Shown one piece after another: positions 1,160 through 52,302 of a stretch of 64,000 nucleotides of DNA. Numbering within the stretch: the stretch's first letter is position 1; each line of letters opens with the position of its first letter. The stretch lies in the IMG/VR virus record IMGVR_UViG_3300036790_000425, positions 32,001 through 96,000 of that record, one strand, 5' to 3'. The position numbers and the translations under genes were made by a program. A model generated the notes under the pieces. It was not told the DNA's origin. It ran no database searches and saw only the letters and a list, made by a program, of their open reading frames with translations. The DNA is from a virus.

Positions 1160-1188
1160 TTGCACATTAGCAAGAAACCCTGTAATGT
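1160..1188 (+). promoter_or_regulatory. sigma70-type promoter with TAGCAAG-N5-CTGTA box in the spacer
   Basis: TTGCAC-17 nt-TAATGT; spacer ATTAGCAAGAAACCCTG. Confidence 0.75.
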
Positions 1189-1226
1189 GGTTCTTGCAAG
1201 GGAACGACGACGACAGGAGACGCGAG

Positions 1227-1556
1227 ATGGCCGCTCAGCTGCTGGACACCAGCAACGACGTATGGCGCGACTGCGATGCGCAGGAGCTGCTGGCCATGAT
1301 CGGCCACCGCAACGTGCTGGCCATCTCGGGCGGCCGGGTCCTCCGGCATCCCCGCGGCGGCGTGACGCTGCCGGTCGGCCACGGCTACTCGGTCACCATC
1401 GACCTGGCCGCCAACGACACCTGGACCGTCCGCCGGATCTTCAAGCGCGGGAGCAAGATCTTCCTGCACGGCGAGGAGGCCGAGGTCTACAGCGAGGAGC
1501 TGGGCCAGGCCGCCTACCGCGCCTCGTGCTACGTGAACGTGGCCTTCGGGGAGTGA
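1227..1556 (+). CDS. hypothetical early protein
   Basis: RBS AGGAG upstream of ATG 1227. Confidence 0.75.
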   Translation: MAAQLLDTSNDVWRDCDAQELLAMIGHRNVLAISGGRVLRHPRGGVTLPVGHGYSVTIDLAANDTWTVRRIFKRGSKIFLHGEEAEVYSEELGQAAYRASCYVNVAFGE

Positions 1557-2304: not shown

Positions 2305-2341
2305 TGGTCTTGCAGGGAAGACGACAGCTGAGGAGCCCCGG

Positions 2342-3178
2342 ATGAGCCAGCCAGACCCCCGCCAGCACGACGAGGCCACGCGCGACCTGTACGAGGCGCA
2401 GGCGAAGGCCGGCCGTCAGGTCAAGATCGAGCTGGAGCGGGTGCACCAGCACGCGGGCGACCGGCGCGACCGCTACGCCGGCGGCTGGGTCATGAAGAAC
2501 TCCGAGGCGCTGGGCGCGACCACCCCGGACGCCCTGTCCCGCTTCCAGGCCGCCGCCCGCGAGGCCGCCCGCCTGGCGGATGAGATCAACGACATGGACG
2601 CGATCTACGCCACCTACCGGTGGAGCCGATACTTCCTGGTCACCAACACGGGCGGCCACGTGCACCGCGACAGGACCTGCCCCACCTGCTTCCCGGCTAC
2701 CCAGTACCACTGGCTGCCCGAGCTGTCCGGCTGCGACGAGGCCGCCATGATCACCGAGTTCGGTGAGAAGGCCTGCACCGTCTGCTTCCCGGACGCGCCC
2801 GTCAACCCGGCCTACCACGCGCCGGGCCGCCGCGACCGCGCCGCCATCGAGGCCCGGGACGCTGAGAAGGCCGGGCGCGAGGCCAAGAAGGCCGCGAAGA
2901 ACCTGACCGAGGGCCAGCAGTTCCGGGTGGACGGCAGCCGGGTCGAGACCGTGCACGGGTGCATCGAGGTGCTGCGCAGCGAAGTCGAGTTCCGCGACTA
3001 CTACGGCAACGGCGAGCACCCGTTCCACGCCGACTACGCCCGGGGCGCGGCCGAGGCCGCCCGGGTGCTGCTGGCCCGCGAGGCCGCCGCCCCCGGCACC
3101 GGCAAGACCCAGGCCGAGATCAGCACGATCATCGAGCGCGCGATCATCCGGAACCGGAAGGACGGCGCGCGGATCTGA
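2342..3178 (+). CDS. actinophage early-type protein with HxH...CxxC...CxxC metal motif
   Basis: RBS GAGGAG; WSRYFLV..GGHVH..CPTC..ACTVCFPDAPV. Confidence 0.75.
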   Translation: MSQPDPRQHDEATRDLYEAQAKAGRQVKIELERVHQHAGDRRDRYAGGWVMKNSEALGATTPDALSRFQAAAREAARLADEINDMDAIYATYRWSRYFLVTNTGGHVHRDRTCPTCFPATQYHWLPELSGCDEAAMITEFGEKACTVCFPDAPVNPAYHAPGRRDRAAIEARDAEKAGREAKKAAKNLTEGQQFRVDGSRVETVHGCIEVLRSEVEFRDYYGNGEHPFHADYARGAAEAARVLLAREAAAPGTGKTQAEISTIIERAIIRNRKDGARI

Positions 3179-6166: not shown

Positions 6167-6195
6167 TTGCGCATTACAGGGTTTCTTGCTAATGT
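6167..6195 (+). promoter_or_regulatory. sigma70-type promoter with inverted box
   Basis: TTGCGC-17 nt-TAATGT, identical to 2276-2304. Confidence 0.75.
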
Positions 6196-6233
6196 CGTCT
6201 TAGCAAGGAAGACGACATCAAGAGGAGCCCAGG

Positions 6234-6437
6234 ATGACCACCGCTACCGCCCCCGCCATCAGCCCGGCCTACGCCGCCGCCGTGACCGAGACCGCCGGGA
6301 TGATCGGCAGCGAGGTCTCGCAGCTGGCCTACGAGGCCGTCATCGCCCGCCCGGCGCAGCCGGAGCGCGCCGCCGCCCTGTGCTCGATCGCCGCAGCCCT
6401 GCACGAGGCCCGCGTGGCCGCCGGGATCGCGTGGTGA
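6234..6437 (+). CDS. small Ala-rich hypothetical protein
   Basis: RBS GAGGAG. Confidence 0.7.
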   Translation: MTTATAPAISPAYAAAVTETAGMIGSEVSQLAYEAVIARPAQPERAAALCSIAAALHEARVAAGIAW

Positions 6438-14461: not shown

Positions 14462-14857
14462 CTACACGCTAGCGGGCGGCGGCTTCTCCTGGCCATATGC
14501 CCGGGCCCGGCCGGCGGCCTCGAACACGCTGGTGGTGCCGTCCGCGGGGATCTCCAGCTCCCAGACCGCGGCCAGCGCGGCGGTCAGCTCGATCCGGGCC
14601 TGCTTAGCGGCGGCCGTCAGCACGCTCATCACCTGCTCGTACACCGGGCCCGCCTCGAATGGGCCGATCCCGGTCAGGGCCTTCCGGATGCGCTCCGCGG
14701 CCTCGATATCGCTGACATGCCCGCGGATCCGGTCATCCGCCATCCAGGTGCGCGGGTCAGGGATCTCCCGCTCAATCTCGGTCTCCTCCGGAGCCTGGTC
14801 CTGGTCGGTTTCCCGGGGGTCCAGGGCATCCGCCTCCGGCTCATCAGCGAGCGGCAA
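14462..14857 (-). CDS. acidic hypothetical protein
   Basis: ORF overlapping UDG stop; RBS GGAGGAG. Confidence 0.55.
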   Translation of the reverse strand: MPLADEPEADALDPRETDQDQAPEETEIEREIPDPRTWMADDRIRGHVSDIEAAERIRKALTGIGPFEAGPVYEQVMSVLTAAAKQARIELTAALAAVWELEIPADGTTSVFEAAGRARAYGQEKPPPASV

Positions 14858-15476
14858 CGCGCTCTCCTCCCAGGACCGAGGCCAGCGCCGCCGTGGTCTC
14901 GGCCTCCATCATGGCCAGGTCCGCCGGCCGCCTCTCCCGCAGCAACGCGGCTGGGTGCCAGATGCTCAGCATCATGGCCGCCGCCGCCGGGCAGCAGTCC
15001 GGAGCCCAGCGCATCCACTTCCCGCGGGCGTTCGGGAAGGTGCCGTTCCGCTGGCTGGTCAGGGCCTGGAAGGCGACCGCGCCGGCGGCGATGACCACCA
15101 CCGGGCTGATCAGGGCGACCTCCGCCTGGATCCGCGGGGCTGAGGCGACGATCTCGTAGATGTAGGGCGTCCGGTTGTGCGGCGGGCGCCAGGGCACGAC
15201 GTTGGCGACATAGCACTGGTCCCAGGCGATCCCGGCGTCCCCGGTCAGGGCCCGCAGCCGCTTCCCGGCCGCTCCGGTGAACGGCTCGCCGGCGCGCTCC
15301 TCGTCCTCGCCGGGGGCCTCTCCGACGATCACCAGCGGCGCCGTTACCGGACCGTGACCAGAGATCAGCCGCCGTCCGCTGCGGGCCAGCGGGGACATCA
15401 CGGGATGGTCGGCGTACTCCTGGTACAGGCGCGCGATCGCGGCCTGGCGCCCGTCCGGCTGGCCGGCCTCAGTCAT
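14844..15476 (-). CDS. udg: uracil-DNA glycosylase, family 4-like
   Basis: IVGEAPG..E...GEPFTGAAG..L, NVV..RPP.NRTP, HPAALLR; RBS GGGAGG. Confidence 0.88.
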   Translation of the reverse strand: MTEAGQPDGRQAAIARLYQEYADHPVMSPLARSGRRLISGHGPVTAPLVIVGEAPGEDEERAGEPFTGAAGKRLRALTGDAGIAWDQCYVANVVPWRPPHNRTPYIYEIVASAPRIQAEVALISPVVVIAAGAVAFQALTSQRNGTFPNARGKWMRWAPDCCPAAAAMMLSIWHPAALLRERRPADLAMMEAETTAALASVLGGERVAAR

Positions 15477-15489
15477 CGTGTTACCTCCC

Positions 15490-15612
15490 GGAGATATGAC
15501 GAGCCGGGCGCCTCCCGGAGGAGGCACCCGGCTCAGCAGGCGCCGTCTGGACTCCTGCGTGCAAAGGAAAACGACGCTAGGAGGCCCCGGCAGAGCCGGG
15601 GGGTTCCTTGCA
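15490..15612 (-). ncRNA. candidate structured sRNA/leader antisense to early-gene leaders
   Basis: Downstream of promoter 15619-15647; three hairpins including a 15-bp stem with cUCCGg loop; 15561-15584 is complementary to conserved leaders. Confidence 0.45.
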
Positions 15613-15618
15613 AGGCCA

Positions 15619-15647
15619 AGACTAATACAGGTTTTCTTGCTAGTCAA
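15619..15647 (-). promoter_or_regulatory. sigma70-type promoter with box in spacer
   Basis: TTGACT-AGCAAGAAAACCTGTAT-TAGTCT on minus strand. Confidence 0.75.
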
Positions 15648-15927
15648 CCCCGGAATCCCTCAGCCTTGCCTCAACCGCATCACGGACCGCCTGGCGGCCG
15701 TCCCCGTGCCGGTAGAACCGCTCGACCTCATCGCGGATCACCAGCTCCATCGCCCTGGCCGCCTCGGCCTTCACCACCGCCCGGACGTGCTCCGGGCGGC
15801 ACAGCTCGGTGATCGCGCGCTGCATCTCGGATGAGATGTCCAGCTCGTGCTGGAGGAGCGCCATCTTGATCTCGTGCGCCATGCCCTCGACGCGCATGGT
15901 GATGACGGGAATCCCGGGCTGGCTCAC
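15640..15927 (-). CDS. hypothetical protein
   Basis: GTGA-coupled ORF. Confidence 0.65.
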   Translation of the reverse strand: MSQPGIPVITMRVEGMAHEIKMALLQHELDISSEMQRAITELCRPEHVRAVVKAEAARAMELVIRDEVERFYRHGDGRQAVRDAVEARLRDSGVD

Positions 15928-45717: not shown

Positions 45718-45751
45718 GCAGGGCGGGACACGCGCCGTGTCCCGCCCTGCT
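45717..45751 (-). terminator. hairpin abutting the promoter
   Basis: 15-bp perfect stem AGCAGGGCGGGACAC/GTGTCCCGCCCTGCT. Confidence 0.65.
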
Positions 45752-45759
45752 AGCTGTCC

Positions 45760-46134
45760 TCAGCCACTGAACTGGCGGCCCTTCCGGGGCGCGAAGCCGA
45801 GGCGGACCGCGTTGGCGGACTCGGGGATCACGATCATCCGCTCTCCCGAGCCCTCGTTGCCCTTGACGTACAGCTCGCCCTCCAGCATCCGGACGTTGAA
45901 GGTGCTGTCGAACCCCATCCCGCCGAAGCGGACATCGGCGGCCCGGCCGAGCGGCCGGGGGACAGCGCCGTAGGCGTCCGCGAAGGTGTCGCTGTCCGCC
46001 GGGCCGGCAGCCAGGGTGGCCCTAGCGTGCGCCAGGTCCTGCTCCAGACGCTGGATGTAGAAGCGGACCTGCCGGGGCAGCCGCGCGATCGCGTCCTCGC
46101 TGAGAGCGCCCTCGGGGCGCTGGTACTGAGTCAT
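45760..46134 (-). CDS. hypothetical early protein
   Basis: RBS AGGAGG, own promoter. Confidence 0.75.
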   Translation of the reverse strand: MTQYQRPEGALSEDAIARLPRQVRFYIQRLEQDLAHARATLAAGPADSDTFADAYGAVPRPLGRAADVRFGGMGFDSTFNVRMLEGELYVKGNEGSGERMIVIPESANAVRLGFAPRKGRQFSG

Positions 46135-46176
46135 GGCCGGCCTCCTGAGCCTGTTTCGTCTTCCCTTGCTCTGCCG

Positions 46177-46206: not shown

Positions 46207-46422
46207 CTACCGGCAGCGCTGCCGGTGCAGCCTCCGGGCTTCCCCGGTCATCCGGATGGCGTTGCCGGAGGCCACGCCCAGGATGATGAGGGAGAACCCG
46301 AGGACGCCCAGCGTGCTGCCGGCCTGGTGCCAGATGATCATGCGCCAGATGATGACACCCGTCCCGGCCAGGGACAGTGCCGCCATGTAAGCCCAGACCA
46401 TCAGGGCTGTCCGGTTGCGCAC
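46207..46422 (-). CDS. small two-TM membrane protein
   Basis: two hydrophobic helices; RBS GGAGGGG. Confidence 0.6.
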   Translation of the reverse strand: MRNRTALMVWAYMAALSLAGTGVIIWRMIIWHQAGSTLGVLGFSLIILGVASGNAIRMTGEARRLHRQRCR

Positions 46423-47862: not shown

Positions 47863-47891
47863 AGCTTAGCAAGGAAAGCTGTATTAAGCAA
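47863..47891 (-). promoter_or_regulatory. sigma70-type promoter with box
   Basis: TTGCTT-AATACAGCTTTCCTTGC-TAAGCT. Confidence 0.75.
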
Positions 47892-47920
47892 GAGGCCCCG
47901 GCAGGATCGCCGGGGCCTCT
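47891..47920 (-). terminator. hairpin after ArdC-like gene
   Basis: AGAGGCCCCGGC/GCCGGGGCCTCT. Confidence 0.65.
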
Positions 47921-48876: not shown

Positions 48877-48905
48877 AGCTTAGCAAGGAAAGCTGTATTG
48901 AGCAA
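48877..48905 (-). promoter_or_regulatory. sigma70-type promoter with box
   Basis: TTGCTC-AATACAGCTTTCCTTGC-TAAGCT; 48862-48906 matches 47848-47892 at 43/45. Confidence 0.75.
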
Positions 48906-52019: not shown

Positions 52020-52048
52020 ACATTATCAAGAAAACCTGTAATCGTCGA
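52020..52048 (-). promoter_or_regulatory. promoter with box driving the Spd-like operon
   Basis: TCGACG-ATTACAGGTTTTCTTGA-TAATGT. Confidence 0.65.
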
Positions 52049-52049
52049 G

Positions 52050-52302
52050 GATCACACCTGCGGAACCCCGGTTTCCGGGGGTCAGGGACCCGCTTCGATC
52101 ACAGTCACAGTTCCTGACCTGCCCGTCCTCGAAACTGTGATCGAGTAGTGATCCGGCAGACCGTGACTGTGACTTAGCGGGGTTCCTTGCCAGGGTCAGG
52201 GGCCCCGGATCACAGCGATCTTTGTTTAGACACGGACACGATCGGTGATCACTAGCAATGAAACTGATATTTTCGACGTTATCCATAACAATGACTGATC
52301 AC
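52050..52302. repeat. cluster of GATCAC/GTGATC/GTGACT repeats upstream of traB
   Basis: copies at 52050, 52097, 52137, 52148, 52163, 52169, 52208, 52245, 52297; 11-bp inverted repeat 52095-52105/52134-52144. Confidence 0.6.

Follow-up and report, generated by a model that had tools for sequence, protein, structure and literature searches.

The phage antisense RNAs nearest to the element described here are the c4 RNA of P1 and P7 (immI operon, Rfam RF01695) and, in satellite phage P4, the CI RNA; they block a ribosome-binding region and the expression downstream of it. The C4 and CI RNAs act on two sites in their own transcript, maintaining immunity. SreA and SreB of Listeria are terminated riboswitch transcripts, i.e. 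trans-acting sRNAs derived from a 5′-UTR. In T4 a class of early mRNAs is shut off by the endoribonuclease RegB, which cuts GGAG motifs in translation initiation regions. The nut site of lambda and the put site of HK022 combine a promoter-proximal single-stranded motif, a small hairpin with a conserved loop and a terminator-like structure downstream. To our knowledge, phage antisense RNAs (P1 c4, P4 CI, P22 sar, lambda OOP) serve one locus each, mostly immunity. The role of c4 RNA in ant repression in P1/P7 has been described (PMC8198154), and Citron & Schuster 1990 is cited in a 2025 review of phage-derived sRNAs (PMC12197685). The phrase 'early genes' is absent from that review, which is weak evidence that an RNA switch for the early class lies outside the described repertoire.

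The c4 and CI RNAs are the closest known systems to our element in that the logic is shared, while sequence, fold and many-target layout are not. Like them, the element would be an operon-upstream phage RNA that does not overlap its targets and whose short complements are repeated elsewhere. Unlike them, it has no sequence or structure match to RF01695, and the proposed pairing is with six to ten separate early mRNAs, at the 5′ terminus of each. More specifically, a cmscan search of positions 15300–15800 on both strands against 4227 Rfam families (E ≤10) found no family and no C4 match; the best score was at chance level (mir-351, 21.7 bits compared to a gathering score of 70). As in SreA/SreB, a leader that lies close to its promoter and is closed by a terminator-like hairpin could also act as a free RNA and base-pair; the element differs from these in having no recognised ligand-binding aptamer and in that its proposed targets are the phage's own messages. 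The proposed function resembles that of RegB, shut-off of an early class through a short shared motif, except that the proposed agent is an RNA base-pairing with a shared 5′-terminal leader and not a protein nuclease. With nut and put the element was compared by layout alone, in which they are alike; a nut/put antitermination site gives no reason for 19–23-bp complementarity to other transcripts.

The window analysed here is a 64,000-nt stretch, bases 32001–96000 of a 162,435-bp IMG/VR virus record of about 70% G+C that is rated complete (G000). Blastn and tblastn found no close relative among isolate phages, and the phage is known from metagenomes only; by composition its host probably belongs to a high-GC, actinobacteria-like clade. 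The element occupies a 165-nt gap between a 95-aa minus-strand ORF (stop TAG 15642–15640) and a minus-strand uracil-DNA glycosylase (UDG) gene. Its parts, in the direction of predicted transcription, are as follows.

15642–15647, minus strand: −35 hexamer TTGACT of the putative promoter P5, identical in all five homologs
15626–15640, minus strand: promoter-spacer box GCAAGAAAACCTGTA, shared by the boxed promoter family
15619–15624, minus strand: putative −10 hexamer TAGTCT of P5, 17 nt after the −35; TACNCT in relatives
15603–15612, minus strand: predicted 5′ end of the RNA, UGCAAGGAAC, with the start site placed 7 nt past the −10, at ~15612
15585–15601, minus strand: hairpin H1, 7 bp, loop UCU
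15560–15584, minus strand: anti-leader CCUCCUAGCGUCGUUUUCCUUUGCA, which pairs with the leaders and has a core invariant in five homologs
15584–15580, minus strand: CCUCC (anti-SD), within the anti-leader
15570–15560, minus strand: seed core UUCCUU(U)GCA, the conserved part of the anti-leader
15536–15558, minus strand: hairpin H2, 9 bp, compensatory changes in 4 of 9 pairs
15501–15534, minus strand: hairpin H3, 15 bp, UCCG loop, one U·G; compensatory changes in 7 of 12 pairs
14844–15489, minus strand: UDG gene (PF03167, E = 4.7e-26), the first gene after the element; ATG at 15476, SD GGGAGG at 15489–15484

The position of the anti-leader between H1 (15601–15585) and H2 (15558–15536), with a 15-bp UCCG-loop stem at 15534–15501, agrees with what an earlier note on this DNA had described. 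H3 is terminator-like and has no U tail. Neither P5 nor a terminator was called by a generic scan based on an E. coli-type consensus; P5 is proposed as a promoter from its likeness to a family of more than 20 boxed promoters. Its −35 lies 3 nt closer to the box than in the other members. The start site and the 3′ end of the RNA are likewise predicted. No promoter was found between H3 and the SD in the homologs. TTGCAC in the core was considered as the −35 of a second promoter and rejected, as no −10 is present at 16–18 nt in any homolog. Leader-type sequence at the 5′ end of the element's own RNA is seen in this window only.

Four leaders within the window, each preceded by a boxed promoter, are complementary to the anti-leader; duplex energies and cofolding ddG values are given for each.

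1195–1229, plus strand: target leader 1 (UGCAAGGGAACGACGACGACAGGAG..ATG), boxed promoter at 1161–1188; 22 bp, −33.6 kcal/mol, ddG −22.5
2311–2344, plus strand: target leader 2; 23 bp, −31.8 kcal/mol, ddG −28.3
6202–6236, plus strand: target leader 3; 19 bp, −26.3 kcal/mol, ddG −20.0
46132–46170, minus strand: target leader 4, before a DUF7239 gene; 23 bp, −33.5 kcal/mol, ddG −21.2

These are the leaders that the earlier note had placed at 1196, 2312 and 6203 (plus strand) and 46169 (minus strand), and each does begin 7 nt past the −10 of a boxed promoter. The note's four proved to be part of a larger set: seven to nine leaders are present in the genome, four in the window and the rest outside it, at sites that together span more than 70 kb. 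They precede short genes of unknown function, one of which is DUF7239. The minus-strand 24-mer at 15584–15561 that had been proposed as an anti-leader lies downstream of P5 and does complement the leaders including their SD.

The 25-mer anti-leader forms 19–23 bp with the four in-window leaders; these duplexes begin at the predicted +1, reach the SD and average −31.3 kcal/mol. Shuffled anti-leaders (n = 1000) give −16.8 kcal/mol (sd 2.3) and not one of the 1000 reaches the observed value. When both strands of the 162-kb genome were scanned in full with a 30-nt anti-leader (about 40,600 windows), the leaders took ranks 2–5, 7, 11 and 17, its own complement set aside. These results confirm that the match to the leaders is far beyond chance. 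Leader HMMs (nhmmer) ranked the inverted copy 11th, 4th and 12th (E = 8.4, 0.3 and 5.9), this method being too weak for 30-nt motifs. The remark that differences between core and targets are accommodated by G:U pairs also holds: the window's core UUCCUUUGC pairs with the leader variant GCAAGGGAA through one G·U. Complementarity to the leaders ends at the predicted +1.

The predicted +1 comes from the boxed promoter family. The 15-nt box GCAAGAAACCCTGTA occurs at 7 sites in the window with ≤3 mismatches, compared to 0 expected, and at no fewer than 16 sites genome-wide. A TTGCRC-type −35 and a TANNNT −10 enclose the box, which takes up the 17-nt spacer and can point either way; for example, the 13–15-bp box core at 1168–1186 (plus) is oriented oppositely to those at 2282–2300 and 6173–6191 (minus) within the same −35/−10 arrangement. 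The core is flanked by ATTA/TAAT, and the family, with at least 20 members genome-wide, is common to the related genomes G001–G003. In leaderless members the ATG stands 6 nt (rarely 7) past the −10, e.g. TAAGCT-gtccct-ATG and TAAGGT-aactcc-ATG; such promoters are found at window positions ~47868 and ~48882 (minus), at genome positions 28433 (plus) and 148426 (minus), and in G001–G003. This spacing makes it likely that the family's start site is 7 nt past the −10. In another subset this is the base before GCAAGG, so the mRNAs should begin (U/A)GCAAGGRAnCGAC. After the GCAAGG start these leader-type mRNAs run on to AGGAGG and then ATG. The end of complementarity at +1 gains weight because +1 is set independently, by the leaderless promoters with their 6-nt spacing.

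Several other features of the boxed promoters were observed. Some boxes read GCAAGGAAAGCTGTA and thus contain the leader core (e.g. window 47869–47883 and 48883–48897; G002 40663). The leader may stem from duplication of the box, or one protein may read both. GC-rich perfect hairpins without U tails stand directly upstream of many boxed promoters and form terminator-promoter modules (examples in the window: 45722–45752, 46215–46232 and ~47895–47920). U-less terminators have been described for actinophages, and these modules resemble them. The boxed promoter at 52024–52042 adjoins a dense array of direct and inverted GATCAC/GTGATC repeats (52040–52300) in a long gap between divergent genes.

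Relatives were retrieved via the 15-nt box pattern together with the P5 promoter pattern. The element is carried by G001 (165 kb, with terminal repeats), G002 (82 kb) and two short metagenome contigs, L144 and L146; G003 (68 kb) is closest to the window's genome but does not have the UDG region. The UDG protein is ~50% identical in G001 and G002. In the four relatives with the UDG region P5 reads TTGACTAGCAAGrAAAnCTGTATTAC and is followed by a 5′ hairpin that varies, then by UUCCUUGCA without any change, by a 9-bp hairpin and finally by a long GC hairpin whose sequence differs. A hairpin at the position of H1 is present in every homolog and has a different sequence in each, whereas the 9-nt core UUCCUUGCA is invariant in all five, except for one extra U in the window, with diverged flanks. 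This supports purifying selection on the seed core in five phage lineages. The spacing from seed to H2 is fixed at 1–3 nt and the H2 loop is conserved (CAGAC in the window, CAGAU or CCGAU in relatives). By a covariance model there is exactly one copy of the element per genome. The distance from the P5 box to the seed is 62, 64, 72, 78 or 79 nt among homologs and keeps no helical phase.

The covariation that the earlier note had proposed to look for in related phages is present: 11 of the 21 H2 and H3 pairs show compensatory changes. In the alignment of the two hairpins 89% of cells are paired, compared to 41–54% when the partners are slid by 1–3 columns, and 0 of 500 shuffles reach the observed values. 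There are 10 G·U cells against 1 A·C cell, which puts the selected structure on the UDG-sense RNA, i.e. the window's minus strand; the fold z-score is −6.1 on this strand and −3.9 on the other. A plus-strand sense reading of the leader-like copy was rejected. Neither a box nor a TANNNT is found at a suitable spacing, and a start codon is missing as well: no ATG, GTG or TTG follows within 23 nt past the plus-strand GGAGG, as had been noted before. The G·U counts also disfavour the plus-strand reading.

The first gene past the element varies. It is UDG in the window and G002, DUF4326 in G001 and L146 (between the element and UDG, at L139:1183–1497 for G001 and L146:1674–1874), and an ORF of 79 aa without known function in L144, where two such small ORFs stand between the element and UDG. 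The element stays with the promoter, not with any particular first gene. A further observation concerns a reading frame that opens in the H2 loop and runs through H3. In L139:1096, L140, L144 and L146 it starts with AUG; it ends at or before the next SD in G002 and L144 and joins the next gene in frame in G001 and L146. In the window (15546–15481, minus) the start position is ACG and the UAA at 15483–15481 overlaps the UDG SD region. With the window counted, three homologs close the frame at or near the following SD and two have it fused to the next gene; the frame is a possible leader peptide, with unconserved peptide sequence.

Searches for further homologs gave none. A search for related loci with the UDG protein returned only distant UDGs of 27–33% identity without the element; a pattern scan of genome contigs gave a single chance match in a Synechococcus MAG, and a seed plus H2 pattern scan of viral contigs gave no further homolog. 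One site, L210:1251–1340 (IMGVR_UViG_3300042821_000033), looks similar: it has TTCCTTGCAGGGG..GGATGGACCC followed by a 12-bp GC hairpin, resembling the seed-H2-H3 layout, on a contig of 63% GC without P5. It was rejected as a homolog at a covariance model E of ~7.

Pairing with the leaders is found across the relatives. Leader sets were defined by our own criteria in G001 (n = 10) and G002 (n = 8), the short form of the RNA was taken from its start to H3, and SD-containing 70-mers served as controls. Cofolding of the short form with leaders gives ddG of −19.7 (G000), −20.9 (G001) and −22.8 (G002), compared to −7.0 to −7.9 (sd ~3.5) for the controls. Leaders beyond the controls' 5th percentile number 7/9 in G000, 10/10 in G001 and 8/8 in G002. 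Moreover, each RNA pairs better with the leaders of its own phage than with those of the others (−19.4 vs −15.0 in G000, −20.9 vs −16.3 in G001, −22.8 vs −17.3 in G002; one-sided p = 0.007, 0.02 and 0.006, with paralogous leaders treated as independent, so that these p-values are overstated). The preference has the same direction outside the invariant core. The window's extra U suits the GGG leader variant GCAAGGGAA, which is commoner in G000 and G003, and the relatives' core UUCCUUGC matches the leader GCAAGGAA, commoner in G001 and G002. It is important to note that concerted evolution of promoter-leader cassettes could mimic co-evolution of seed and leaders.

What is common to all homologs is pairing with the first 9–17 nt of the mRNAs. 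In G001, for example, the unpaired CUGUCGAUUCCUUGCA can form 16 bp with GCAAGGGAUCGACGGC or with GCAAGGAACGACAGCC. Only the window and G002 have CCUCC and with it complementarity to the SD, which is absent from G001 and L146 and weak in L144. What is conserved is therefore not a translational shut-off at the RBS. The conserved act would be a duplex formed where the messages begin, which need not occlude the SD. The MFE structures of the short form leave the whole seed single-stranded between H1 and H2 in G001 and G002, and its unpaired probability is 0.98 in L144. In the window the mean is 0.60, and the predicted ensemble has the seed partly masked, both by the RNA's own leader-type 5′ end and by pairing that replaces H2. 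In long forms of the RNA the core is mostly paired.

The reading we prefer, tentatively, is a trans-acting anti-leader RNA that is either the 5′ leader of the UDG operon or an sRNA of ~115 nt. A structured, promoter-proximal RNA would be transcribed on the minus strand where the UDG (DNA-repair/replication) operon begins, consisting of H1, a single-stranded seed (UUCCUUGCA with a lineage-specific 5′ extension), H2 and the long GC hairpin H3. H3 resembles the U-less terminators of the phage, so the RNA could be both operon leader and free RNA. Starting at +1, the seed would pair in trans with the very first bases of the leader common to six to ten dispersed early mRNAs, and in the window and G002 the duplex would extend to the SD. 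The outcome would be a coordinated shut-off of the early class as the replication operon is transcribed, either by blocking ribosome binding or by offering a 16–23-bp duplex to RNase III-type decay, or both. The earlier note had suggested that a single RNA could shut off dispersed early genes together. The part of this that stands is a structured minus-strand RNA with the leaders as its best partners; pairing with the SD is not conserved. Note that the anti-leader and its targets share the same box type, and a temporal offset between them is thus not evident from sequence.

In every homolog the element lies close to the promoter, with the first gene of the UDG operon immediately downstream, which would also suit a cis-acting leader that governs either translation of this gene or read-through of H3 (an attenuator, an anti-SD switch or an antitermination site like nut or put), possibly with a short uORF from the H2 loop through H3; the likeness to leaders would then have another cause. 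RNAalifold pairs the core with a purine-rich stretch past H3, the core is mostly paired in the long forms, and H3 is like the U-less hairpins that close other transcription units, which makes attenuation or antitermination of the UDG operon plausible. Moreover, an AUG is present in the H2 loop in 4/5 homologs with SD-like purines 5 nt upstream. However, the window has ACG in this place and the putative peptides are not conserved, and both the first gene and its SD differ among homologs. Duplexes with the own start site have −12.1, −18.9 and −16.9 kcal/mol, i.e. the 79th, 13th and 56th percentile of SD-containing controls, whereas the target leaders fall in the top 2–9% on the same scale. As pairing with the own start site is ordinary, a cis anti-SD role was rejected as the main reason for core conservation. 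A cis leader also leaves unexplained the 19–23-bp match to the leaders, its stop at +1 and the preference for cognate leaders. We consider a purely cis-acting leader unlikely, and a cis role may coexist with the trans one.

The trans-acting RNA must also be weighed against two further explanations. The left half of the box, GCAAGRAA, is similar to the leader core GCAAGGRA, which allows a DNA-level reading in which GCAAGGAA/TTCCTTGC is a half-site for the box-binding protein (GCAAGRAA), and the +1 motif of the leaders and the inverted copy are extra operators. The leader start CTTGCAAGGGAAC is indeed like the box left half TTAGCAAGAAACC, some boxes are identical to GCAAGGAAAGCTGTA, and the box functions in both orientations, as seen by promoter arrangement. 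The leader motif, on the other hand, is constant in orientation and in position relative to the −10, and the 62–79 nt between the P5 box and the inverted copy are without helical phasing. The copy keeps a fixed position relative to the covarying RNA hairpins instead. The single nucleotide inserted in the window (GCAAAGGAA) would displace a DNA site but costs no more than a G·U in RNA; furthermore, the match exceeds the half-site by 8–15 nt and tracks the leaders of each phage. Extra operators are in our opinion somewhat less probable than a cis-acting leader. Promoter-leader cassettes are repeated and clearly mobile or duplicating in these genomes, and no ORF follows the plus-strand SD-like GGAGG, so the inverted copy could be a passively carried relic of recombination. 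Against this, the core is invariant at an orthologous site in five lineages in which UDG is ~50% identical and the adjacent hairpins have been wholly turned over. The homology stops at the start site and does not continue into the −10 and box as it would after DNA duplication, and there is exactly one copy per genome. A non-functional relic is very improbable.

The wider claim that one RNA switches off the whole early class, as an RNA counterpart of T4 RegB, with seed and leaders co-evolving in each lineage, we regard as possible and hold a little less firmly than the anti-leader RNA itself. If it is true, this high-GC phage clade would offer an Hfq-independent example of a compact temporal switch, in which a single RNA reaches the whole early class by way of the 5′ leader that its messages have in common. 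Early regulons and the RNAs that regulate them could then be recognised by rule, from sequence alone, in uncultured phages.
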